A DNA stretch of 20,000 nucleotides from NCBI RefSeq assembly GCF_004010195.1, contig NC_057758.1, positions 8,269,834 to 8,289,833 of the forward strand. Reading direction: 5' to 3'. The DNA comes from Chiloscyllium plagiosum. Its lineage: Eukaryota. The notes under the pieces are model-generated. The model was not told the origin of the DNA. It saw nothing but the letters and a program-made list of their open reading frames with translations, and ran no database searches. Made by a program: the position numbers and the translations under genes. Position 1 is the first letter of the stretch. Each line of letters opens with the position of its first letter. Of this stretch, positions 1-19,997 are shown one piece after another.

Positions 1-108
1 GGATAGAACAGCAGTGTACACAGCCCGCCGAATAGCATCCGAGTGCGCCCGAAATATTCTGGGAGATTCTGTGACCTTGGAATTCGACTTTCTTCCCCAT
101 GCTTCCAG

Positions 109-320
109 CGAGCCGAACAGACGAACAAACTGTTTGCTTCCTTACCGATTATGAAAATGACTGTAAAAAAGCTAGTGCCATGTGCTCAGTCAATGTGTGC
201 CCAACAGTTTAGGTATAACCTGTTCTGAGGCTGTGCCAGCCTGAAGAACACTGTTGCAAGAATCGGCGATCTCAGACACAAGTGCCGCACGAGAGCCATG
301 AGGATACTGACTTCAGTTGA
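109..320 (+). pseudogene. Beta-defensin-like mature-domain exon (copy A), disrupted by two in-frame stops
   Basis: Polypyrimidine tract and acceptor ctttcttccccatgcttccag| end at 108. The phase-1 reading gives xSRTDEQTVCFLTDYENDCKKASAMCSVNVCPTV*V*PVLRLCQPEEHCCKNRRSQTQVPHESHEDTDFS*, i.e. C-x6-C-x4-C-x11-C-x5-CC. Stops are TAG 210-212 and TAA 216-218. This frame is absent from the ORF track. Confidence 0.8.
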
Positions 321-339
321 TTCTTAATTTGACTGTGGA

Positions 340-571
340 GTCAAAGTAAGGTCGGACTGTTTAACCGATGTTCACGGAGAGGTGTGACTTAAAACTAGCT
401 GAATTGTTAACCAGTCCTTGTCCATGCCGCATTCGGTGCCAAATGCACAGAGAAGTCTAAGTAAGGTCGGACTGTTTAACCGATGTTCATGGAGAGGTGG
501 GACTTAAAAAACCAGCTGAATTGTTAACCAGTCCTTGTCCATGCCGCATTCGGTGCCAAATGCACAGAGAA
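340..571 (+). repeat. Tandem duplication, 2 x ~116 bp (340-454, 455-571)
   Basis: The unit gtc(a/t)aagtaaggtcggactgtttaacc...aaatgcacagagaa occurs twice here and once in the paralogous copy (about 11504-11618). Confidence 0.95.
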
Positions 572-849
572 CACTGGTGAAAGCACAGGACGTCTGGTAG
601 TTTTAGCGCACAGAGAGGAAATCAGAATTAGCATTTTGAGTCTGGTTGGACTTTTCTGCAGAGAGAAACCCCAACTATTCTGGCAGCAAATACATGCAGA
701 GTGAGAAATGAAGGGGGGTGGAGGGAGAGAGTGAGAAAGAGAGAGAGAGAGCGAGAGAGGGATAACACAGAGGGCGGAATATTGTTCAAGATCAAGGAAT
801 GAAAGATTATCGCAAATGCAGAGGAATATGATTTAGAATGAAAACAGCC

Positions 850-1035
850 ATGATCAGGGATTTGATTAAAAGTTACAGAATACTCAACGACCTGGATAGA
901 ATGGGCATGACGAAGATGTATCCGTCTTTGGGAAAGGCTGGGATCCGAGGGCAAAGCCTCAGAGTAACGGGGCACACCTCGAGAATTGATTAAGGAATAA
1001 CTTCTTCAGGCAGAGAATTGGTGAATCGTGAAACT
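850..1035 (+). mobile_element. CR1-type LINE ORF2 C-terminal fragment, decayed; 3' end resumes at about 1821-1970 (paralog about 11897-12082 and 12868-13017)
   Basis: Degenerate RGDLI.YKIL..LDR...KMFP...RGHSLR...RNFF.QR.VN.WN pattern. The resumed part ends in a tatgattctatg tail. Confidence 0.7.
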
Positions 1036-1039
1036 AATA

Positions 1040-1820
1040 TGAAGCCCATCCCACCTACACTATTCCATGAATGTCCAATGACGACTTAAATGCACTTTAA
1101 CTTGGCGAATCTACTAGCGATGCAGGCAAAGCATTCCATACCCTTACTACTCTCTGCGTAAAGAACCTACATCTGACATCTGTCTTATACCTATCTCCCC
1201 TCACTTTAAAGTTGTGTCCCCTCGTGTTTGCCGTCTCCATTCTTGGAAAAAGGCTCTCCCTGTCTACCTTATCTCACCCTCTGATTATCTTTTATGTGTC
1301 TATTAAGTCACCTCTCAACCTTCTTCTCTCTGACGAGAACAGCCTCAAGGCCCTCAGCCTTTCCTCGTAAGACATTCCTTCCATACCAGGCAACATCCTA
1401 ATAAATCTCCTCTGCACCCTTTCCAAAGCTTCTGCATCCTTCTTATAATGCGGTGATCAGAGCTGTACACAATACTCCAAGTGTGGCCGTATCAGAGCTT
1501 TGTACAGCTGCAGCATAACCTCCTGGTTCCGGAAATCAATCCCTCTATTAATAAAGGCCAAAACACCGTATGCCTTCTTAACAACCCTGTCAATCTGGGT
1601 GGACATTTTCAGGGATCTGTGTACATGGACACCGAGATCTCTCTGCTCAGCTTCACTCCCAAGAATCCTACCATTAGCCCACTACTTTGCATCCCGATTA
1701 CTCCAGTCAAAGTGAATCACCACACACTTGTCCGCATGAACTCCATTTGTCACCGCTCAGCCCAGCTCTGCATCCAATCTATGTCTCTCTGCAATCTACT
1801 ACACCCTTCGTCAGTTTCCA
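1040..1820 (-). mobile_element. CR1-type LINE (RT C-terminal region to 3' end)
   Basis: Reverse strand encodes LQRDID..QSWAE.WQMEF, QRDLGVHVH, VVKKAYGVLAFINRGI, LYKALIRPHLEYCVQ, LERVQRRF motifs with stops and frameshifts. Confidence 0.92.
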
Positions 1821-3298
1821 GATAGACAGGCTCTTGATTGGTAAGACGATCACGAGTTACTGTAGGGGTGGGGTCGGTTGGAACGCATGAGGTCTGATCG
1901 AATGTTGGAGCATGTCCAGGAGCAATATGGTCAAATTCTGCATTTAAGTTTCACAATTGTATGATTCTATGGAATGAGGCAGCAGGCTTAATGACCAAGT
2001 GAACGACAATGGTCCCTTATGCGTGTATCTGCAGCTGTTAAGTGCAAATGGGGCTTCACATTGTCAGGCGTCAGTGGTAATGAATGTGAGCGAGTCGAGG
2101 TTGACCAAAAAGAGAGTACCGCAGTTTCCGAGAGCTCACACTGAGAAAATGATCTCACTGTCAGTGGGCTAAAACTGTGGGAGTGCCGCATTATCGGAGT
2201 GTCAGTGTAACTTGAATAGAACGGGGGAGTCATGAGAATTTACAAGCCGCTCTGCACAGTCATGTCAAAGTGTCAGTAATGAGGGAGCAAAAAATCAGTC
2301 TGTCGGATGGGCTGCACTGGGGTCAGCACTCGGTACTGGAAAGCCAGATCTGGTGGAGCACCACACTGTTGGAGAGTCAGTTCTTATGTAATCCTGCACA
2401 TACACAAGTGCAATCCAGCATGATTTGCTGAATGATGGTGAGTTAGGTTGGAATACACATGGCGGGGTAGAAGCAGGAAATTGAGCAAGGGTTGCTCTGC
2501 ACAGAGATCTCCAGACATACCAGGATGACCACAAAATGGCGAGACGATTATATTGATATTTCTGATTCCTGTAGTTATTCCGTGCCCTCACTGACCAACA
2601 GACAAATTCATTAACACATTTATCCCGTGAGAATCCAAACCATCATACCTGACAGTTCCAAACCATCTTCTTGGCATGTCTATCTGACGACAGGGTCGAA
2701 CCATCCAGAGTGGGCTGCAAAGTGGCAAACCAATGGGAGGAGATTCCAGTCGGTTGGAGCAATTCTCGGGTCCCAAGAATTGATTGGACCAAACGTGGCC
2801 GATGGCAGAGGTGGGGGCCTTGAATGTGCACCCATCCGAGAAACACTGGGAAGAGATAAAGGAATACTACCGCAGGAGAAAACATCAGTGTTAATCTCGC
2901 ATTCGACAGCAGCTTTTGAAACATACGTTTGTGTGTGTGTGTGTTTGCTCTTCTAATAAAAACTTGTTCAAGCATTATTAATAAAAGTCAATCAGAAATC
3001 AGTTTTAATGGGCGGAGAAGTTATAGACATGCATCGTTTTTACTCACTCATGCCACGTGAGCATCTCTGGCTATCCAGCATTTAATGCCCAACTTTAGTT
3101 TCCCCCTTAACAAGGTGGTTGTGAGTGCTTGCTCGCCATGGTCTCACATTGCTATATGGGAGACTGTTCAGAAATGAGACTCAGTGACATGGAAGGAAAG
3201 GCCGGTTTGGATTGGGGAAGATGACTCAGAAATCCATTACAGTTCAGACTTGTTTCAAACATCGACAAAATAACTGAATTTCAGAGCTGAAATGAAGG

Positions 3299-3602
3299 TC
3301 GCAAAACTGGTCTCAATGGATATCAAGGGGCAAACTCTCCATTGGTTAGGGTGGTAATCACAAGATATGCCAAATGTCAAGGTTGTTGGAGGTCAGTAAC
3401 CTCAGAACCAGAACATCTCTCCTCAGGATAGTGACCAAGGCTAAATTATCGTCAGCTACTCTACCATAACGTCATGATTACGGATGTTGCTGATGACTGC
3501 CCAATGTTCATCATCATTTGCATCTACCTAGTTACGGAAGCAGTCCATTTTAAAGTGCAACAATATGAGTACGATGTCTAGGCTCGGCTGGCAAGTGGCA
3601 AG
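3299..3602 (+). mobile_element. Decayed LINE RT fragment (paralog of 14395-14698)
   Basis: KLVSMDIKGQTLHWL, VVGGQ and ADDC remnants. Confidence 0.7.
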
Positions 3603-3776
3603 GCAAACAGAAGACTGCAGATTCTAGAGATAAGAGCCCAGAGTGTGGTCTGGAAAAGCATCACTGGCCAGACAGCATCTGCGGAGCAGGAAAATCAACG
3701 TTCAGATTAAAGCACTACCTCAGGGCTTTTGCCCAAAACATCGATATTCCTGCTCCTCGAACGTTGCCTGGTTTGC
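3603..3776. mobile_element. Decayed fold-back Penelope-like terminal repeat remnant, cut by the gap (paralog of 14699-14898)
   Basis: Similar to the 19618-19997 repeat. The second half is an inverted copy of the first. Confidence 0.65.
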
Positions 3777-4276
3777 NNNNNNNNNNNNNNNNNNNNNNNN
3801 NNNNNNNNNNNNNNNNNNNNNNNNNNNNNNNNNNNNNNNNNNNNNNNNNNNNNNNNNNNNNNNNNNNNNNNNNNNNNNNNNNNNNNNNNNNNNNNNNNNN
3901 NNNNNNNNNNNNNNNNNNNNNNNNNNNNNNNNNNNNNNNNNNNNNNNNNNNNNNNNNNNNNNNNNNNNNNNNNNNNNNNNNNNNNNNNNNNNNNNNNNNN
4001 NNNNNNNNNNNNNNNNNNNNNNNNNNNNNNNNNNNNNNNNNNNNNNNNNNNNNNNNNNNNNNNNNNNNNNNNNNNNNNNNNNNNNNNNNNNNNNNNNNNN
4101 NNNNNNNNNNNNNNNNNNNNNNNNNNNNNNNNNNNNNNNNNNNNNNNNNNNNNNNNNNNNNNNNNNNNNNNNNNNNNNNNNNNNNNNNNNNNNNNNNNNN
4201 NNNNNNNNNNNNNNNNNNNNNNNNNNNNNNNNNNNNNNNNNNNNNNNNNNNNNNNNNNNNNNNNNNNNNNNNNNNN
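3777..4276. other. Assembly gap (500 N)
   Basis: Run of exactly 500 N. Confidence 1.
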
Positions 4277-4506
4277 CCCCAAAGTCTCCATTTCATTCAT
4301 ACACTGTGGTGATCCGGTCTGAACATGGTCTTCTGACTGCCGTGTAACCAAATGTCTACACAGCAGCTAAGCTGCAACAAAGACAATGTCATCGCGGTAT
4401 CCTGCCTATTCTCTGACCATTGCTTTCGTCCCTGTCATTATGTTAGAACTCTGATCTGAATGGGAAATGAAATTTGGACAATTTATGTTTGTTGATGTCG
4501 TTTAGT

Positions 4507-4512
4507 TTTATT
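4507..4512 (-). promoter_or_regulatory. Putative polyadenylation signal of the minus-strand defensin-like gene
   Basis: tttatt on + is AATAAA on -, about 100 nt after the TGA at 4611-4609. Confidence 0.45.
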
Positions 4513-4608
4513 CATATGTGTGAGAAGGCAGTGCGTCAGGACTCATTGTATTGAGACCATGAAATGAAGATTGAATTGGTGAGATGACAGATCTCTCCAT
4601 TCGGAAAC

Positions 4609-4775
4609 TCAAAGGCTTTCCAGAGGTGCATGTTTCCTTTTCTTCATCGCTGGCAAGAAAGGCATGCAGCACACTTAGAAGTGTGGGCATGCCCCATCGG
4701 TCCTCACTGAAATTGTCTCATTACATGGTACTTTACTGCAGTAACTTCGCTCTAAAACACATGGAATGATTGGAT
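4609..4775 (-). pseudogene. Beta-defensin-like mature-domain/terminal exon with one premature stop
   Basis: Minus strand: long pyrimidine tract ttttttctcttttgttctgtctccgag| (GAG acceptor, atypical). Phase-1 reading is xPIIPCVLERSYCSKVPCNETISVRTDGACPHF*VCCMPFLPAMKKRKHAPLESL*, the same C-x6-C-x4-C-x11-C-x5-CC spacing. Premature TAA at 4677-4675. AATAAA lies about 100 nt downstream. Confidence 0.82.
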
Positions 4776-5164
4776 CTCGGAGACAGAACAAAAGAGAAAA
4801 AATATTCTTCAATGTTAACATTCCACACACTGGATATCCTCCTGTGGTCTCACTGGGGGGCATAAAGCCAGAAAATGCAGATTGCAGTCTCTCGTTTCTA
4901 ATAGTAATTTGTTGGGGTCGCTGTTGTACATATTGCTTGAAGTGGTTTCCATTATTGTTTGTGAATACCAGACCTGCATGCAGTGCTGCAGCTCTGACCT
5001 GCTATTGATATAGCCGATTGGGAACTGATCAGTTTGTTCACAGTGTGTAAATATTTGGGAAGACGGACTGCAACGTTTCTGAGCACGTTGCTTCAGGAAC
5101 TGAGAATCGATAGGAAACATCAGCTGGCTTAAAGGTGAACAGATCCCCTGGTCCGTAACTCAGT

Positions 5165-5405
5165 GACTTCATTATTCAGAGAGTTGTTGGGATATGGAAC
5201 ATCGCTGCCAAGGAGAGAAGTGGAGGCAGATTCGACAGAAGCTTTCAAAAGAGAATTGGATATTCATTTGAAGGGGATGAATTGAGAGGGATATGGAGGT
5301 AGGGATGGAGAATTGTGTTAACTTTGCAGCTCTTACTGGAGCCGGGGCAGAAACAATGGATAGAATGGTCGCGCTCTGAACTGGAAATTCTATGATTATT
5401 ATATG
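5165..5405 (+). mobile_element. CR1-type LINE 3' end, decayed
   Basis: QRVVGIWN..P...VEADS..AFKRELDIHL remnant and an attctatgatt tail. Confidence 0.75.
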
Positions 5406-5674
5406 ATGGGCAGCTGATGAAGCCTTGCTAAAAGCGGGGTGATTACAGACCAATCTTAAAGGTGGAAATAGAAGTGGTTAGTGTTAAATAATTTCTTGTG
5501 CAACAGAAGTCTTGAGGCACGGGCAACATAGACAGTTTTAATAATACAGCTTAGATCAAAGAAGACCGGACTTGGCGGAATTCAGATATTGTAAAAGCGT
5601 TCAAACTGCAGCCACTGCAGATATCAGATCAACTACACCCACAACTACAATTTCCAGGCTTTTCCCAATACTTC

Positions 5675-6190
5675 AGCGATTCCCTTACTGCTTGAAAAAT
5701 CTGTCAGTCTCACCTTTGAACACACAATTCTCTTGGGGAGAGAATTGCCTGCATTTACAACAATCCAATAGAAGAAACTTCACACCAAGAATGTTTTAAA
5801 TTGTCAACACTTCATTTTAAGACGAGGCCCTCTGGTCCTACATTCTCACATAAGATCAATCGACCTCTCACCAGTTAAACTGAAAATACGTTTAAGAGCC
5901 ATTTATTATTCAATAAGCTCACCTTGTATTCTTCGAAACTCCAACGAGTCCTCGTCTAACCTACGGAACATCTGATTAGACCGTCCGTCCATAACTGGAA
6001 TCAGCCCAATGAACTTTCTGTGGTCTGCCTTTCTTCAGGTATGCTGCCCGAAACTGTTCACAATATTCCATTATGCCGACTCGAGTCGTGTTTACCTTCA
6101 GTGAAACCTCTTGAATTTCATAATCCAATCCACTTGAATTTAAAGTCCGGCAAAGCCATGCGTATATTTAAACAAATCTGGTGAACTGTT
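5675..6190 (-). mobile_element. CR1-type LINE ORF2 C-terminal fragment, heavily decayed
   Basis: Reverse strand shows EYCEQF, SLEFRRIQGELIE and RTRGPRLK remnants. Confidence 0.7.
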
Positions 6191-6300
6191 TGCAAATGCT
6201 TCTGCGACAGATATTATTACACAACTTTGAAACATGTAGAATTTGAAACCTCCATTGCATCACAACATTCGCCCTTTCACTGAGTTGTCGCATGAATTGC

Positions 6301-6436
6301 ACATCTGCTTGGCGATCAATATTTGCAATAAGAAAAAAATGCAAGCATACGATTTTTTGTACAGACTAGAAATTATGATCGACATCTTTCTGTGCGCAAT
6401 TTTTTTTTTCTTCCAAGATTACAGAGAAAGGAACGA
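6301..6436 (-). pseudogene. Decayed beta-defensin-like exon, candidate partner of the 6582-6645 signal exon (145-nt intron)
   Basis: Acceptor taatatttcag|. Phase-1 reading FVPFSVILEEKKNCAQKDVDHNF; after a 1-nt frameshift it continues VCTKNRMLAFFSYCKY*SPSRC. C1, C3 and C4 are kept with x11 between C3 and C4. C2 (CAT) and C5 (AGC) are mutated. Confidence 0.4.
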
Positions 6437-6581
6437 CTGAAATATTAACGTGAATGAACACACATGATCAACCCAAATAGAAGCAAAGAGCATAGTGACC
6501 ACCGTTCAAAGCAGTGCTGCCCTCGTTTGACCACATGAAGTTGTGCAAATCTCTGTAAGGAAGTTTAACTGGGGTACTTAC

Positions 6582-6645
6582 AATTTTTCTGGCCTTCCAC
6601 CAACACCAGCTTTCCAATCAGCAAAAGCAGTGTCAACCACTTCAT
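6582..6645 (-). CDS. Signal-peptide exon of a small secreted protein (likely defensin-like gene), intact
   Basis: ATG at 6645 reads MKWLTLLLLIGKLVLVEGQKN plus 1 nt, followed by a consensus donor T|GTAAGTA (phase 1). It has a basic N-terminus, a hydrophobic core and a V-E-G cleavage-type motif. Upstream acceptor-like sites (ctgtgtttcag near 6677, ccacaacag near 6648) suggest a separate 5' UTR exon. Confidence 0.75.
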
Positions 6646-6929
6646 CACTGTTGTGGCGAGAGGAAAAATGACAAGACTGAAACACAGATCATCATTTTAT
6701 GGTTTCAAAGATGGCCCTGTTTTTCATCACAGACATAACTATGACTGGCACCAGTTTGAATTATGTTGAAAATTATCTCACTAACTGAGACAGGGAGTGA
6801 ATGGAACGGAAGTTCAAAGCTATCTCCTTAAAGTTTACATGTTGTACCGAACAAAGTTACCGGCCTGAGTAATGAGAGAACTAAAGAAGATCGAAATAAT
6901 TTATTTCTCGGAAATCAGTAGCACGATGA

Positions 6930-7185
6930 ACCCGTTTAGTTCCTCGAAACTGCGCAGCTGCTCGGAAGACCATGTATATTCTGTGGGTGATCTCCATATG
7001 CCTGCCTTGAGAACACATCCCTTGACATCCTTCCTCAATAAAAATGTGTCTATCTCAGATTTAAATCTAAGAATTGAAATATCATCAGCCGCCATTTGAA
7101 GATGGCATTTCTGAACCGACACTACTCTGTGTGTAGAAGTGCTTTCTATTACCTCTCCTGAATGACGCTGACAGAATTCTTAGGT
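6930..7185 (-). mobile_element. CR1-type LINE 3' end, decayed
   Basis: ORF 6901..7122 remnant RFKSEIDTFLLRKDVKG, typical of the CR1 ORF2 terminus. Confidence 0.7.
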
Positions 7186-7204
7186 AATTTGGACATCGTT
7201 TACT

Positions 7205-7340
7205 GGAACCAGCATTTATTGCTTGTTCTCAGTTGCCCTCTCGAGAAAGTGGTAGTAAGATGCCTTCTTGAACTGATGCAGTCTGAGTGCTGCAGGTTGA
7301 CTTACAATACCCTTCGGAAGGGAATTCGTCCCAGCACAAT
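7205..7340 (-). mobile_element. LINE 3' end fragment, same family as 16622-16795 (related pieces at about 3060-3200 and 14156-14296)
   Basis: ccagcatttattgc...ttcttgaactgatgcag is the reverse complement of the motif at 16700-16770. Confidence 0.6.
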
Positions 7341-7453
7341 TTTTGACTTTTAATTCAAATTGTGGACATTGTTTCTGTTTATCTCCCCTGACTTTCGCTA
7401 CTGACTCCCTGAAGTCGTTGATTAGACCATCCTTTCACGGTTCAGATTCCGAG

Positions 7454-7651
7454 ATGAAAAGGCTCTCATCACTCCTCAGAAATTAAGACGTGATGTTCAG
7501 GGTTTGTGCTTGTGCTCTTGTAATGAAATCTTTCCAATGCCTAAAGCTCCTTCCTGAAGACGTTGGCAGAGGAAATGGTTTGTGTTTCGGGTATTCCCAG
7601 AGGATTGGAGTTCTGTTGCTATCCGTTGTATTATATAATGGACTCTGTCAA
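7454..7651 (+). pseudogene. Decayed two-exon beta-defensin-like gene (candidate)
   Basis: ttcag|..ATG MKRLSSLL.. to CAGG|gtttgt (7501), then aaag| at 7546. Allowing small frameshifts, it reads (R/C)WQRNGLCFGx(F/C)PEDWSSVAIRCIIxNGLCQ. Several repairs are needed and the intron is only 45 nt. Confidence 0.35.
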
Positions 7652-7681
7652 TGGAGAATGGAAGCAGATCTCGAATGACAA

Positions 7682-7933
7682 AATCCCTACAGTGTGGAAG
7701 TCAGTGATTCGGCCATCGTGTCCACATCGACTGTTTGAAAAACATCCCACTGAGACGCACCAGAAAACTTTGATCCTGTCAGCCTGCATTTCCGATGCTA
7801 TGGAGGCTGATCACCAGGAGGCAACGCAAGCAAATGCAGGGAGAAGTTCAAACAATTAGTCACCCATTTGTGGAATCGACACGAGGTCCCTGGCACTGTT
7901 AAGCAGCAGGGCTAATCACTGAGCACCAGTGCC
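7682..7933 (-). mobile_element. Old HE1/V-SINE-like tRNA-derived SINE
   Basis: Reverse complement resembles 18314-18611 (tail ttccacactgtaggga, head ggtgctcagtgattagccctgctgc). Confidence 0.7.
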
Positions 7934-8029
7934 TCATGGTGTATTAAACAAATATTTAGGAAAGTAACAAAACTCCCACTTGACCAGAACAATGGAAGAA
8001 ATGGAAGGTATCGAGGAAATGTATACCTT

Positions 8030-8737
8030 GATGAATGATAGTGAACGTGCCTTTGTGCGGGGCAGACCATGTTTCACAAGCCTAATGGAACTATTTGAGA
8101 ATGTGGCAAAACACATTAATCAGGGCAGAGCACTTGATGTACTCGAGATGAATTGCAGCATGGCGTTTGCTAATTCAGAAAGTAACAACGCGTGAGATTC
8201 AGGGAAATCTCGCTGTCTGGATATAGATTTGCCTGGCCCACAGAAGAGGAGAATAGTCGTAGATAGAAAGTATTCAGCCTGGATCTCAGTGGCCAGTGGT
8301 GTTCTGCAGGGGTCTGTTCTGGAAAATTTGTTCATTGTGATTTTTATAAATGACTCGCATGTGGAAGTGAAAGGGTGTTTAGACAAATATGCCGATGACA
8401 CAAAGGTTACTGCGGGTCCTGATATGTGGAGTGCTGTTATAGGTTGTAACGGGAGACTGACAGGATGTACAGCGGGTCTGAGAGGTAACAGGCAGATTCT
8501 AACTAGAAAAAGCGTAAAGTGTTTCATTGTGAAATTTGGAATTATAATGTTGATTACAGGGGTAAAGGCAAGATTTTTGTCATTGTGGTGGAACAGAGGG
8601 ATCTTGGGATGCACGCACATAGATTCCTGAAAGTTGCCACCCAAGTTGAAAGGGTTGTTCAGAAGGTGTATGATGTGCTGGCTATTGTTAGCAGCGGAAT
8701 CAGATTACGAACCGCAAGGTTATGCTGCATGTCTATG
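8030..8737 (+). mobile_element. CR1-type LINE reverse transcriptase, decayed; 3' end continues at about 8958-9260
   Basis: ORF remnants FVRGRPCFTSLMELFE..QGRALDV, SGVLQGSVL..FIND..YADDTKV, EQRDLG and RKNFFSERAIDLWNSL. Confidence 0.93.
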
Positions 8738-8957
8738 AACCCACCCATTCCCCTACGCCTAACACTGCGGGCAATTTAGCACGGTCAATTCACCTGACCT
8801 GCACATCTTTGGACTGTGGGAGGAAACCGGAGAAAACCCACGCAGACACGGGGAGAATGTGCAAACTCCACACAGTCAGTCGCCTGAGTCGGGAATTGAA
8901 CCAGGTCTCTGAGCGCTGTGAGGCAGCAGTGCTAACCACTGTGCCACCGTACTGCCC
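8738..8957 (-). mobile_element. HE1/V-SINE-like tRNA-derived SINE inserted in the CR1
   Basis: Minus strand: A-box tggcacagtgg, B-box ggttcaattcc and core tgtggagtttgcacattctcccc. Close match to 18314-18611. Confidence 0.93.
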
Positions 8958-9386
8958 AAAAGGGATGCTTCCTCAGGTCGGGATTTGTAGAAGGATAGGT
9001 CCATGTTTTAAAATAAAGGTATGAATTCAGAACATAGATGAGGAAGAATTTTTTTTCTGAAAGAGCCATCGATTTGTGGAACTCTCTGACGCGGGATGCA
9101 GTGAATGCTGGGATACTAGTAAACGTAAAGAAGAGGTGGACAGATTTTTACCTGACTTCGGCTGAAGAGATGGGACTGGAATGTAGAGTTGGCGGTTGGG
9201 AAAAGGTCAACCATGATTACATTAAATGACCGCTGGCTTGAGGGATTTCCTATCCTTCTCCTTTTCCTTGTTCTTCACCTCTCACACAACACAATTAACC
9301 CTGGGCTCATTTATTATAATGAGACACTGGCACGTTCCCTGCACCCTTTCCTCCAGCAAACCAACTCTGTTACCGAAATGATTTAA

Positions 9387-9870
9387 AAGTAAACAGGAGT
9401 TTGGCATCTTGCATGTTCAACTTTGCAAGTCATGCGACAGAGTTACTGGCTGAACCCTCAAATGTTTGCTGTTTTTCCACACCGTTCACACAAAGGGACG
9501 TGAGATACTGTTTCCAAATTTGTGGATGGCAGAAAGATAGCCCGAAAGAAAAATAACTCAATAGTAATCCTTGGACGTGATGTAAGTAAATTTCATGAAG
9601 GCTGGATATCAGGTGCTCCTGCGCAGATATAGAATGTTCAGTGTGCAAGCACGGTATACAGGCATGGAGAGAAGAACGATTGCTCGGGCAGGAAGTAAAC
9701 AGGAGTTTGGCATCTTGCATGTTCAACTTTGCAAGTCATGGGACAGAGTTACTGGCTGAACCCTCAAATGTTTGCTGTTTTTTCCACACCGTTCACACAA
9801 AGGGACGTGAGATACTGTTTCCAAATTTGTGGATGGCAGAAAGATAGCCCGAAAGAAAAATAACTCAATA
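9387..9870 (+). repeat. Near-identical 177/178-bp direct repeats (9387-9563, 9693-9870) around a 129-bp unique spacer
   Basis: Direct comparison shows one substitution and one 1-nt indel. Confidence 0.95.
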
Positions 9871-9884
9871 AGACAGTTCTGAAC

Positions 9885-10205
9885 ATGAGTGCAGAATTAG
9901 ATTTAACATTGATAAGTTTAGGAAACGCTCTTGGGAAGAAGAATCATGGTAGGAGAGTACTCAAGATTCGTGGGTCATGAGAAGGCTCAAAGGAATAGAG
10001 GAATCTTCGGAGCGTGTCCACATGTTAATGGTAGAATTAAGAAGGACCGTGTTGTCTTTACCATTCGACACATCGCTTATGAAAGCAGGAGGTTATGTTG
10101 GATCTGTACAGAACTTCAGTTTGGGCAGAGATGAAATATTGTGCGTACTCCTGGTAATCACGCAATGGGAAGGATATCTTGTACTGGAGGGAGAAAAGAG
10201 GAGGT
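9885..10205 (+). mobile_element. CR1-type LINE RT C-terminal fragment, heavily decayed
   Basis: EVMLDLYRT..EMKYCAYSW..KD..LEG remnants. Confidence 0.7.
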
Positions 10206-10499
10206 GGCAAATTTAATTGAGTTACAAGCTTGCAGAGAAGCAAATATCTGCACATTTCTGTCTTAATTCGGAAGTCCCTTATTCTCAAACTATTGCCTGC
10301 CGTTCTCGATATACCGAGGAGAGGAAAAATCAGCTCGAACATAAATTTGACTTTCTTTTTAGGCAGATCACACAGACTCACAGATTCATACAGTCTGGAG
10401 AATATTGTTTTGTTAACATAGAAAAAAATGCAAGAGGAAGAAAACTATACTTCAGTAATACAGGGCATTGGTGACACTGCAACTTGGAGAACTGAGCAG

Positions 10500-11225
10500 T
10501 GAACAATTTCGATGCATGCAGATGACTCGAAACCTGGGAGAACAGTAAACTGTGTGAAGGACAGTACAGAGATTCAAAAGGACACTAGCAAATTGGTAGA
10601 GTTGGCAGGTAAGAGGTAGACACATTTCAATTCAGAGAAGTGAAAGGGGACGCACTTTATTGGAAGATCACTGAAAGGCAATATAAAATTGGGATTGGGT
10701 GGTACAGGTGGCAGAAATTTAAAGGGGGGCAGGCGCAAAGAAACATGCATGTATCTGTGTGCAGATAATAGACCTTGGTAGGACAAAGGGAGACAACAGC
10801 AAAGAAAGAATAAACTGGTGCAACTGCTTTCCCTGGAGAGAAAATGGCTGAGAGGAGATATGACGGAGATTTCAAAATCATGGCATGGGGTTGAACTGTG
10901 TACACAGGGAGAAGGCTTTACCATTTGTAAAAGAATCAAGAATGAGATGGGCGTATGGTCGCATCGTTAAGGTGGGTGCAAATGAAACAATAGTGAAGAC
11001 AGTAAGATCTTTTCCACCCAGTGAGTACTTAGGGTTTGGAATGCATGGCCTGGAGGTATACTCATGGCAAGTTCAATTAATAGTTTCAAGACGGAAGTCG
11101 GGTATTTGTTGGTGTGGAAATGAGATGCAGTGATCTGGGGAAAGAGTCACGAAGTTTACATCGGGGATAGAACAGCAGTGTACACAGCCGGCCGAATAGC
11201 ATCCGAGTGCACCCGAAATATTCTG
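10500..11225 (+). mobile_element. CR1-type LINE (ADD motif to 3' end), decayed, internally deleted
   Basis: ADDSK, IQKD..KLVE, FNSEK, FSLE..WLRGD and VWNA remnants. Its 3' end abuts the acceptor of the defensin-like exon. Confidence 0.75.
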
Positions 11226-11272
11226 GGGGATTCTGTGACCGTGGAATTCGACTTCCTTCCCCATGCTTCCAG

Positions 11273-11484
11273 CGAGCAGAACAGACGAACAAACTGTTTG
11301 CTTCCTTGCCGATTATGAAAATGAATGTAAAAAAGCTGGTGGCATGTGCCCAGTCAATGTGTGCCCATCGGTTTAGGTATAACCTGTTCTGAGGCTGTGC
11401 CTGCCTGAAGAACACTGTTGCAAGAATCGGCGATCTCAGACACAAGTGCCGCACGAGAGCCATGAGGATACTGACTTCAGTTGA
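11273..11484 (+). pseudogene. Beta-defensin-like mature-domain exon (copy B), disrupted by two in-frame stops
   Basis: Acceptor cttccttccccatgcttccag| ends at 11272. Phase-1 reading is xSRTDEQTVCFLADYENECKKAGGMCPVNVCPSV*V*PVLRLCLPEEHCCKNRR..., including the typical C-xxx-GG-x-C motif. Stops at 11374-11376 and 11380-11382. Confidence 0.82.
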
Positions 11485-12086
11485 TTCTTAATTTGACTGT
11501 GGAGTCTAAGTAAGGTCGGACTGTTTAACCGATGTTCACCGAGAGGTGTGACTTAAAACTAGCTGAATTGTTAACCAGTCCTTGTCCATGCCGCGTTCGG
11601 TGCCAAATGCACAGAGAACACTGGTGAAAGCACAGGACGTCTGGTAGTTTTAGCGTACAGAGAGGAAATCAGAACTTGCATTTCGAGTCTGGTTGGACTT
11701 TTCTGCAGAGAGAAACCCCAACTATTCTGGCAGCAAATACATGCAGAGTGAGAAATGAAGGGGGGTGGAGGGAGACAGTGAGAAAGAGAGAGAGGGCGCG
11801 AGAGAGGGATAACACAGAGGGCGGAATATTGTTCAAGATCAAGGAATGAAAGATTATCGCAAATGCAGAGGAATATGATTTAGAATGAAAACAGCCATGA
11901 TCAGGGATTTGATTAAAAGTTACAGAATACTGAGCGGCCTGGATAGAATGGGCATGACGAAGATGTATCCGTCTTTGGGAAAGGCTGGGATCCGAGGGCA
12001 AAGCCTCAGAGTAACGGGGCACACCTCGAGAATTGATTAAGGAATAACGTCTTCAGGCAGAGAATTGGTGAATCGTGAAACTAATG

Positions 12087-12867
12087 TGAAGCCCATCCCA
12101 CCTACAGTATTCCATGAATGTCCAATGACGACTTAAATACACTTTAACTTGGCGAATCTACTAGCGATGCAGGCAATGCATTCCATACCCTTACTACTCT
12201 CTGAGGAAAGAACCTACCTCTGACATCTGTCTTATACCTATCTCCCCTCACTTTAAAGTTGTGTCCCCTCGTGTTTGCCGTCTCCATACTCGGAAAAAGG
12301 CTCTCCCTGTCTACCTTATCTCACCCTCTGATTATCTTTTATGTCTCTATTAAGTCACCTCTCAACCTTCTTCTCTCTAACGAGAACAGCCTCAAGGCCC
12401 TCAGCCTTTCCTCGTAAGACATTCCTTCCATACCAGGCAACATCCTAGTAAATCTCCTCTGCACCCTTTCCAAAGCTTCTGCATCCTTCTTATAATGCGG
12501 TGATCAGAGCTGTACACAATACTCCAAGTGTGGCCGTATCAGAGCTTTGTACAGCTGCAGCATAACCTCCTGGTTCCGGAAATCAATCCCTCTATTAATA
12601 AAGGCCAAAACACTGTATGCCTTCTTAACAACCCTGTCAATCTGGGTGGAAATTTTCAGGGATCTGTGTACATGGACACCAAGATCTCTCTGCTCAGGTG
12701 CACTCCCAAGAATCCTACCATTAGCCCACTACTTTGCATCCCGATTACTCCAGCCAAAGTGAATCACCACACACTTGTCCGCATTAACTCCATTTGTCAC
12801 CGCTCAGCCCAGCTCTGCATCCTATCTATGTCTCTCTGCAACCTACTACACCCTTCGTCAGTCTCCA
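12087..12867 (-). mobile_element. CR1-type LINE (paralog of 1040-1820)
   Basis: Same motifs. ORF 12797..13045 ends EGCSRLQRDIDRMQSWAER. Confidence 0.92.
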
Positions 12868-13970
12868 GATATACAGGCTCTTGATTGGGAAGACGATCAC
12901 GAGTTACTGTAGGGGTGGGGTCGGTTGGAACGCATGAGGTCTGATCGAATGTTGGAGCATGTCCAGGAGCAATATGGTCAAATTCTGCATTTAAGTTCCA
13001 CAATCGTATGATTCTATGGAATGAGGCAGCAGGCTTAATGACCAAGTGAACGACAATGGTCCCTTATGCGTGTATCGGCAGCTGTTAAGTGCAAATGGGG
13101 CTTCACATTGTCAGGCGTCAGTGGTAATGAATGTGAGCGAGTCGAGGTTGACCAAAAAGAGAGTACCGCAGTTTCCGCGAGCTCACACTGAGAAAATGAT
13201 CTCCGTGTCAGCGGGCGAAAACTGTGGGAGTGTCAGTGTAACTTGAATAGAACGGGGGAGTCATGAGAATTGACAAGCCGCTCTGAGCTGCACTGAGCAC
13301 AGTCATGTCAAAGTGTCAGTAATGAGGGAGCAAAAAATCAGTCTGTCGGATGGGCTGCACTGAGGTCAGCACTCGGTACTGGAAAGCCAGATCTGGTGGA
13401 GCACCACACTGTTGGAGAGTCAGTTCTGATGTAATCCTGCACATACACAAGTGCAATCCAGCATGATTTGCTGAATGATGGTGAGTTAGGTTGGAATAAA
13501 CATGGCAGGGGTAGAAGCAGGAAATTGAGCAAGGGTTGCTCTGCACAGAGATCTCCAGACATACCAGGATGACCACAAAATGGCGAGACGATTATATTGA
13601 TATCTCTGATTCCTGAAGTTATTCCGTGCCCTCACTGACCAACAGACAAATTCATTAACACATTTATCCCGTGAGAATCCAAACCATCATCCCTGACAGT
13701 TCCAAACCATCTTCTTGGCATGTCTATCTGACGACAGGGTCGATCCATCCAGAGTGGGCTGCAAAGTGGCAAACCAATGGGAGGAGATTCCAGTCGGTTG
13801 GAGCAATTCTCGGGTCCCAAAAATTCATTGGACCAAACGTGGCCGATGGCAGAGATGGGGGCCTTGAATGTGCACCCATCCGAGAAACACTGGGAAGAGA
13901 TAAAGGAATACTACCGCAGGAGAAAACATCAGTATTAATCTCGCATTCGACAGCAGCTTTTGAAACATAC

Positions 13971-13974
13971 GTGT

Positions 13975-14040
<66 letters not shown>
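13971..14040. repeat. (GT)n microsatellite, about 35 units (only about 7 in the paralog at 2931-2944)
   Basis: Directly visible. Confidence 0.98.
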
Positions 14041-14045
<5 letters not shown>

Positions 14046-14394
14046 CTTCTAATAAAAACTTGTTCAAGCATTATTAAAAAAAGGCAATCAGAAATCAGTT
14101 TTAATGGGCGGAGAAGTTATAGACATGCATCTTTTTTACGCACTCATGCCACGTGAGAATCTCTGGCTATCCAGCATTTAATGCCCAACTTTAGTTTCCC
14201 CCTTAACAAGGTGGTTGTGAGTGCTTGATCGCCATGGTCTTACATTGCTATGTGGGAGACTGTTCAGAAATGAGACTCAGTGACATGGAAGGAAAGGCCG
14301 GTTTGGATTGGGGAATATCACTCAGAAATCCATTACAGTTCACACTTGTTTCAAACATCGACAAAATAACTCAATTTCAGAGCTGACATGAAGG

Positions 14395-15493
14395 TCGCAA
14401 AACTGGTCTCAATGGATATCAAGGGGCAAACTCTCCATTGGTTAGGGTGATAATCATAAGATATGCCAAATGTCAAGGTTGTTGGAGGTCAGTAACCTCA
14501 GAACCAGAACATCTCTCCTCAGGATAGTGACCAAGGCTAAATTATCGTCAGCTACTCTACCATAACGTCATGATTACGGATGTTCCTGATGACTGCCCAA
14601 TGTTCATCATCATTTGCATCTACCTAGTTACGGAAGCAGTCCATTTTAAAGTGCAACAATATGAGTACGATGTCTCGGCTCGGCTGACAAGTGGCAAGGC
14701 AAACAGAAGACTGCAGATTCTGGAGATAAGAGCCCAGAGTGTAGTCTGGAAAAGCATCACTGGCCAGACAGCATCTGCGGAGCAGGAAAATCATCGTTCA
14801 GACTAAAGCACTACCTCAGGGCTTTTACCCAAACCATCGATATTCCTGCTCCTCGAATATTACCTGGTTTGCTCTCGTTTCCAGCACCACACCCTCAACT
14901 GACAAGTTGCATGTCACATCCACGTCATGCACATGCCAAATTATCACCCCTACAAATAAGAGACAATCTAACAATTGACCCGACTCAGTCAATGTTGTTA
15001 CAATCAATAAGTCCTCAAAATGAACATCCTGCGCTTTATGTCTGATAAGGAACTCAACTGGACTCACCACGTAAACACATTAGCTACAGGAAGCGGTCAG
15101 CGACGAGGAATACTGTGGCTAATAACTCAGGTCTTAACTCCACTAAGCCTCGACATAATCTAAAAGGTACAGATCATGAGTGTGATGGACTACCACATCA
15201 CTTGTGTGGATAAGTGCAGCTGTAACAACGCTTAAGACGTTTTGAACCATCCAAGACAAAGCAGTGCATGAATGGCATTATGTTCCCAACTATTCAAACT
15301 CTCGAACGCCCAAGCTCAGGAGCAATAGTGTGTACTTTATATCGGATGTTATGTCAAAATTCAGCAAATTTCACTCAGATCGCACTGTCAAAATTCATGA
15401 CAAATTTGCCTTCCAAGAAAAAGTGTAGCAGATTAATGGTGAAGCTATCACCTGAAAGGTTTCCTCCAAGCCACTCATATCCTGACTTAGAAC
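14395..15493 (+). mobile_element. Decayed non-LTR LINE (second CR1-group family), RT region, interrupted at 14699-14898; 3' end displaced to 16622-16795
   Basis: KLVSMDIKGQTLHWL, PDDCPMF, ADKWQ, KELNWTHHVNTLA, KVQIMSVMDY and TIQDKA remnants. Confidence 0.8.
14699..14898. mobile_element. Fold-back Penelope-like terminal repeat remnant inserted in the LINE, with a 15-bp flanking duplication
   Basis: Inverted arms (ggagcaggaaaatc / gatattcctgctcc; ctggaaa / tttccag). Flanks are ctgacaagtggcaag (14684-14698) and ctgacaagttgcatg (14899-14913), 13/15 identical. Confidence 0.7.
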
Positions 15494-18313: not shown

Positions 18314-18611
18314 GAGTGCAACGGTGGCACAGTGGTGAGCACTGCTGCCTCACAGAGCCAGAGACCAGCGTTCAATTCCCGCCTCAGGCGACTGCCTGCG
18401 TGGAGTTTGCACATTCTCCTCGTGTCTGAGTGGGTTTGCTCCGGTTTTCTCCCACAGTCCAAAGATGTGCAGGTTAGGTGAATTGGCCATGCTAAATTGT
18501 CCGTAGTGTTAGGTGAAGTGGTAAATGTATGGGTGGGTTGCGCTTCAGCGGGTCGTTGTGGACTTGTTCGGCCGAAGGGTCGGTTTCCACACTGTAAGTA
18601 ATCTAATCTAA
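18314..18611 (+). mobile_element. Full-length HE1/V-SINE-like tRNA-derived SINE with CR1-type tail
   Basis: Pol III A-box tggcacagtgg (18325-18335), B-box-like gttcaattccc (18370-18380), V-type core, and tail ttccacactgtaagtaatctaatctaa. Confidence 0.95.
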
Positions 18612-19307: not shown

Positions 19308-19676
19308 TAGACTGATCAGAAGAAAGTGGAATAATACTGTTAAGATGCAAAATCACGGTACATTTTAAGGAATAAAAGAAGTTTCAACTACAAAATGCCA
19401 TGAATTGCACGGAACCGACTGACATCACTCGCCGCATCCTATAACTGCATTCGCTATTCTATTCCTGTAGTATCTGGATTTTATGCCTGACCAGAAATGT
19501 AAATCCATCAACTGTGAAAGCAACTATGAACCAGCTAAAACAGGGCAGGGCCATAAGAAACAGACCAATTCTGAATGCGTACAGAGCGGTCATGTCCAAG
19601 ATTGCAACTGGGGAATGAGTTGAAACTTTCTTGCTGGAACAGCACAGCAGGTCAGGCAGCATCCAGGGAACAGGAG

Positions 19677-19712
19677 ATTCGACGTTTCGGGCACAGGCCC
19701 TTCTTCAGGAAT
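19677..19712 (-). ncRNA. Minimal type-I hammerhead ribozyme motif
   Basis: Minus strand AUUC-CUGAAGA-A-GGGC(CUGU)GCCC-GAAAC-GUC-GAAU: CUGANGA and GAAA boxes, 4-bp stem II, stem I AUUC/GAAU, GUC cleavage triplet, palindromic ACGU in place of stem III. Confidence 0.8.
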
Positions 19713-19962
19713 GAGCAGAGAGTGTTCAGCAGGAGAAGATAAAAGGTAGGGAGGAGGGACTTGGAGGAGGGGCGTTGGAAATGTGATAGGTGGAAAGGGG
19801 TCAAGGTGAGGGTGATAGGTCGGAGTAGGATGGAGGCGGAGAGGTCAAGAAGAAGACTGCAGAAGACTGCAAGAAAGTGAGGTCTGCAGATGCTGGAGAT
19901 CAAAGTTGAAACTTTATTGCTGGAACAGCACAGCAGGTCAGGCAGCATCCAGGGAACAGGAG

Positions 19963-19997
19963 ATTCGACGTTTCGGGCACAGGCCCTTCTTCAGGAA
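19963..19997 (-). ncRNA. Second minimal hammerhead ribozyme motif
   Basis: Identical core UUC-CUGAAGA-A-GGGC(CUGU)GCCC-GAAAC-GUC-GAAU. Confidence 0.75.

Follow-up and report, generated by a model that had tools for sequence, protein, structure and literature searches.

On the minus strand of the window (the whole 20,000-nucleotide stretch of DNA analysed), an exon resembling a signal-peptide exon is followed by a phase-1 intron, an exon with six cysteines and a putative polyadenylation signal; related copies that lack both of the window's lesions occur in other animals. The six-cysteine exon (4775-4609), which is the second coding exon, is read in the coding frame 4773-4612 and closes with a TGA at 4611-4609. 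It encodes a core of six cysteines (codon starts 4761, 4740, 4725, 4689, 4671 and 4668) with a 6-4-11-5-0 spacing, the fourth cysteine (C4) preceded as G-A-C, followed by an 18-residue basic tail. The tail includes K-K-R-K-H at 4644-4630 and has a net charge of +3, the core is about neutral, and an N-E-T sequon lies at 4722-4714. Downstream, the 3' untranslated region (4608-4507) ends in AATAAA (4512-4507), a putative polyadenylation signal. The window copy has neither an open frame nor a canonical acceptor: a premature TAA (4677-4675) falls between C4 and C5, and the splice acceptor (4778-4776) reads GAG. This acceptor sits behind a tract with a pyrimidine fraction of 0.89 over 18 bases, which places it in the top 0.4% of 1119 minus-strand AG sites. 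The six cysteines, the G-x-C at C4, the basic tail, the N-E-T, the TAA, the GAG and the AATAAA had all been described in an earlier note on this DNA, and each was recovered here. The exon peptide quoted in that note is likewise correct, except that its frame begins at 4773 and not at 4775; bases 4775-4774 complete a codon split by the phase-1 intron, and translation from 4775 yields a different frame. About 330 bases separate the exon from a 500-N gap (3777-4276).

The first coding exon (6645-6582, minus strand) begins with an ATG at 6645 and comprises 21 codons plus one base. It resembles a signal peptide, with Lys at position 2, a Leu/Ile/Val core and Val-x-Gly before the likely cleavage site, which by the (-3,-1) rule is likely to follow residue 18; the signal peptide was judged by hydropathy scan only. 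That scan, for ATG-started hydrophobic exons with a phase-1 donor, returned seven candidates, among which 6645-6582 tops both hydropathy (2.64) and donor score. Under stricter criteria, which were fixed after 6645-6582 had been seen, one such signal-like exon is present in the window, and 400 simulated windows together contain 15, counting both strands. The exon is followed by a phase-1 donor, GTAAGT (6581-6576), and by a 1806-base phase-1 intron (6581-4776) that carries decayed repeat fragments and, in paralogues, a 10-base deletion near 4785. The 6645-6582 exon leaves one base over, which forms a codon with the two bases that open the cysteine exon, so that the reading frame continues across the junction. 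By sequence, the locus thus combines a putative signal peptide in an upstream exon with a phase-1 intron just 5' of the cysteines, two features expected of a vertebrate beta-defensin gene. The signal-peptide exon, 1.8 kb upstream and in matching phase, had not been part of the earlier note and upholds its assignment of the cysteine exon to a beta-defensin-type gene.

Two candidates exist for the 5' end (6701-6646), which may be set by a CATAAAA box at 6701 or lie behind the CAG acceptor (6650-6648) of a possible upstream non-coding exon. For the candidate non-coding first exon, the CAG with its pyrimidine tract lies two bases before the ATG, with a donor candidate at 7305 and a TATA-like box at 7637, both on the minus strand. 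A paralogous contig of set X5 (see below) diverges just upstream of the same CAG acceptor.

The cysteine spacing was evaluated against third-order Markov simulations of the window (n=400), using as pattern the published spacing of lizard beta-defensins, as given in the part of PMC12278569 that was available. This pattern has three matches in the window, one of which has at most one stop, compared with three in the 400 simulated windows. For a separate pattern of our own, 0.02 matches per window are expected (300 simulations). The six-cysteine motif is therefore far above chance.

To compare related copies of the locus, four of 24 candidate runs were aligned to 4290-6990; the best runs contain about half of the sampled words. 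X1 and X5 are public contig sets from two separate studies of organism A, X9 is one of organism B, and X19 is single-cell RNA; organisms A and B are two related species. Contigs from paralogues and orthologues span the signal-like exon 6645-6582 in all three contig runs. The nearest pieces diverge from the window by 2.7% (X1), 4.6% (X5) and 6.0% (X9); at such distances, those of X1 and X5 may be recent paralogues and not orthologues. A second contig class in organism A, about 12% divergent, is two to three times as deep and extends over both exons and the intron; the whole gene is therefore multi-copy. At 4563-4623, two X1 contigs match the last part of the tail and the 3' region and then continue unlike the window; their departure at 4623 may point to a paralogue that is more diverged and has a different tail.

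These copies bear directly on the two lesions. At acceptor position 4778, contigs differ from the window at full depth in all three runs (209.4 of 209.4 depth units in X1, 160.3 of 160.3 in X5 and 121.6 of 121.6 in X9), and every covering contig reads TAG. At the stop codon, most related copies read CAA (Gln), with 188.1 of 188.1 depth units in X5, 72.2 of 72.2 in X9 and 327.7 of 380.1 in X1. The X1 depth missing from this count, 52.4, matches exactly that of X1 record 3, the piece nearest to the window. Record 3 also agrees with the window at 4722, and its start, 30 bases before 4677, is where a 31-mer contig would begin at a branch. Because of this match in depth and this branch-like start, one independent animal most likely carries the same TAA, the letter at 4677 being deduced from depth arithmetic. 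In X5, the piece that agrees with the window at 4722 has a depth of 27.8 and reads CAA. The TAA is thus likely to be real and segregating, present in some animals and absent from others, where the pieces compared may be recent paralogues. The GAG is private to the window and reflects a later mutation in its lineage or an error.

A gene that is intact in the sequenced animal, with both lesions introduced by assembly, is improbable on these data. Such errors would fit the lack of GAG in any covering contig of the three runs, the nearby 500-N gap and the multi-copy nature of the region. They would have to be two separate ones, however, and X1 record 3, which by the depth arithmetic has no G at 4677, begins exactly where a 31-mer contig at a branch would. 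At least 14 other places, among the differences listed, likewise set the window apart from every covering contig in the three runs, as a diverged lineage predicts. The earlier note had left inactivation, polymorphism and assembly error side by side; error is now unlikely for the TAA, which an independent animal's contig probably shares, and may account for the GAG. Contigs of the two related species carry TAG at the acceptor throughout the three runs and CAA at the stop in all but one piece. Its suggestion that the exon was intact until recently is borne out by the related copies in two other organisms, with CAA at the stop and TAG at the acceptor.

The cysteine exon is less diverged than its surroundings. 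In the high-depth X5 piece over this exon, 7 of 179 bases differ from the window, compared with 135 of 1098 in five high-depth flanking pieces (3.9% vs 12.3% divergence in paralogues; Fisher p 0.0005), a comparison that takes the high-depth X5 pieces as one group of copies. Of the seven exon differences, two are unplaced. The five with a known position affect the stop codon, the acceptor, the codon at 4722 (Asn to Asp) and, silently, two further codons; among the differences listed, none of these five hits a cysteine codon. This low exon divergence could reflect selection or gene conversion. Most organism A copies, and organism B, have lost the sequon through the change at 4722. The N-E-T sequon, which the earlier note had listed among the features kept by the exon, is thereby ruled out as a family trait.

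The intron also discriminates between gene models. The 10-base deletion at 4785 accounts for 90.3 of 209.4 depth units in X1 and 126.5 of 160.3 in X5. This speaks to a single-exon gene starting at the in-frame ATG 4821, in which the pyrimidine tract would encode a hydrophobic start and the acceptor would be unnecessary. The frame is indeed open from 5001 to the TAA, with a hydrophobic stretch after ATG 4821. However, the deletion shifts that frame in paralogues whose cysteine exon is nevertheless highly similar, and a better signal exon is available at 6645. Harmless in an intron, the deletion is fatal to the frame from ATG 4821, and a single-exon gene is very unlikely.

The window contains two further six-cysteine exons, both on the plus strand. 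The neighbouring exon (11271-11484) shares the 6-4-11-5-0 spacing, has two stops and follows a phase-1 CAG acceptor ending at 11270. Its duplicate (107-320) carries the same two stops and lies inside a 95% duplication (1-3776 / 11165-14872); the six-cysteine cores are at 162-257 and 11326-11421. Because both carry the same two stops, these exons died before being copied. The pair has a seventh cysteine and an acidic lead-in, and its six differing codons are all non-synonymous. No signal exon for the plus-strand exons was found among 12 candidate donors at 4300-11270. Pairwise BLASTP between the minus-strand and plus-strand exons gave nothing significant, the shared positions being the six cysteines plus two others (15-18%). 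The enclosing duplication is direct, with about 95% identity and copies 11.1 kb apart; its first copy ends at the 500-N gap, and the join across the gap could be misassembled.

Pfam returned no family for any of the three exon peptides at E 10, and Rfam gave no match. A PDB sequence search with the short, divergent, X-containing query produced four weak matches, one of them a platypus defensin at E 0.74, which is not significant; a PDB search with a profile of the three exons gave one unrelated match, and one with the plus-strand exon gave none. Large protein searches detected no homologue at near length, none longer and none among 1.84 billion representatives. Two structure predictions (pLDDT 48.4 and 49.6) were too poor for a fold search. 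In the single-cell RNA (X19), of which about 2% was read and whose tissue is unspecified, one read aligned, on a repeat, and none on the exons, a result that says little about expression. Eight alignment joints, all from contig runs and lacking splice-like ends, were left out, and no splice junction was seen in these data. Membership in the beta-defensins accordingly rests on motif and gene anatomy, and not on a sequence or fold match.

The lack of any family, homologue or fold match is what a secreted six-cysteine peptide other than a beta-defensin, with another disulfide pattern or fold and a convergent motif, would predict. Yet short divergent peptides containing X routinely fall below such sequence searches. 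The spacing, the terminal CC, the Gly before C4, the signal exon and the position of the phase-1 intron, moreover, all fit a beta-defensin, and such an unrelated peptide is quite unlikely.

Comparison with known defensins places the locus more closely. According to the gene-structure accounts in PMC6362941 and PMC3978493, mammalian and avian/reptile beta-defensins (Pfam Defensin_beta clan) share the arrangement seen here, with a signal exon, a phase-1 intron and six cysteines in the next exon. The spacing falls within the C-X(6-7)-C-X(3-5)-C-X(8-14)-C-X(5-7)-CC that the motif description in PMC12278569 gives for lizard beta-defensins, with C5 and C6 here behind the stop. The clustered, duplicated and decaying copies also agree with the birth-and-death evolution outlined in PMC6362941. 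Unlike the mammalian, avian and reptile genes, this copy is broken and without a Pfam or PDB match, has 11 residues between C3 and C4, and carries its charge in the 18-residue tail, the core being neutral.

Teleost beta-defensins (types 1-3, e.g. sea bass), as presented in the relevant text of PMC8231796, likewise have six cysteines and a signal peptide of 18-26 residues, and the type 2 motif given there shares the five residues between C4 and C5, Pro first. Their genes, as described, differ in having three coding exons, short introns and cysteines spread over two exons; here the intron is 1806 bases long, and all six cysteines and the stop lie in 4775-4609 and are not split over two of three coding exons. 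The same text assigns three exons to teleost genes and two to mammalian ones, and lists birds and reptiles as three-exon (PMC8231796). The corresponding passages of PMC3978493 and PMC6362941 put the six cysteines in one exon in human and birds and across two in fish.

Invertebrate big defensins offer a second parallel. In the gene-structure portion of PMC7203481, a phase-1 intron 5' of the cysteine region is common to beta- and big defensins, and the big defensins share with this locus two coding exons and the placement of that intron where the cysteine module starts. Most big defensin genes have their coding region over exons 2 and 3 there, often behind a non-coding first exon, which is possible at this locus too (PMC7203481). 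The N-terminal hydrophobic domain of big defensins, in contrast, has no counterpart in the predicted gene model; three residues separate the likely cleavage site from the intron, and the phases of the two coding exons allow a direct junction. A single exon for all six cysteines, which the earlier note had contrasted with the teleost pattern, is therefore no oddity, being the layout reported for mammals, birds and big defensins in the parts of PMC3978493, PMC6362941 and PMC7203481 that deal with it.

Taken together, 4775-4609 is most probably the cysteine exon of a multi-copy, two-coding-exon gene of beta-defensin type, of which the copy in the window was recently disabled. In an intact form, splicing would yield a precursor of about 76 residues that would enter the secretory route and be cut after residue 18. 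The mature peptide would have about 58 residues, with bonds C1-C5, C2-C4 and C3-C6, and would be mildly cationic, with a neutral core and the charge in the tail. It might act at an epithelial or reproductive surface (body surface or duct) in an antimicrobial or signalling role.

In the window copy, the TAA would remove C5, C6 and the tail, so that two of the three bonds could not form and C1 and C3 would lack the cysteines with which they normally pair. Because the stop is in the last exon, the RNA would probably escape nonsense decay. GAG is a rare splice acceptor; it would weaken splicing or shift it to the next AG, 24 bases downstream and in frame, with loss of C1. The stop probably represents a true variant, allelic or between copies, that some organism A animals share; the GAG either arose later in the window's lineage or is an error. 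It is exceedingly improbable that the four-cysteine product of the TAA allele, or stop read-through, is functional. The position of the stop in the last exon and its seeming presence in an independent animal would suit such a product, whereas the unpaired C1 and C3, the decay of the window's acceptor as well and the ordinary decay of the neighbouring exons, with two stops each, argue against it. The window copy is best interpreted as a recent pseudogene or null allele.

Such copy turnover is ordinary for a birth-and-death family, and the family is little described in sharks. No paper describing shark beta-defensin genes was listed in searches of the open-access literature. Section 14 of a 2019 review deals with antimicrobial peptides of sharks and mentions no defensin among them (PMC6795676), and in the accessible text of a shark skin proteomics paper the word "defensin" occurs in the references only (PMC10707392). 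The locus supplies a complete gene model missed by protein databases and documents both duplication and decay of the family within 20 kb. It also places the one-exon cysteine layout in a lineage, apparently that of a shark, outside the bony fishes, which bears on whether the extra teleost intron is a gain. The broken copy represents ordinary turnover, and what makes it valuable is that it may be a natural null allele. A wider reading, possible though doubtful, is that sharks hold a large, fast-turning family with the ancestral big-defensin plan (a non-coding first exon, a signal exon, a phase-1 intron and one cysteine exon), from which the teleost form with three coding exons is derived, and that this locus is a null allele segregating across closely related shark lineages, with intact copies in some animals and broken ones in others. 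If this were true, natural knock-outs would allow the function of one shark defensin to be tested.

Elsewhere in the window, an inverted SINE-like pair (8739-8950 and 18321-18534), 89% alike, appears to resemble an elasmobranch SINE, and the genome accordingly looks like a shark's. Decayed LINE-like fragments lie at 1050-1820, 8100-8730, 10450-11130 and 12070-12860, presumably with reverse-transcriptase-like remnants, to go by resemblance. Near-perfect local duplications occur at 339-571 (a 117-base tandem unit) and, at 99%, at 9387-9563 / 9693-9870 (178 bases) and 19618-19711 / 19904-19997 (94 bases); these short duplications are possibly assembly echoes or very recent events.
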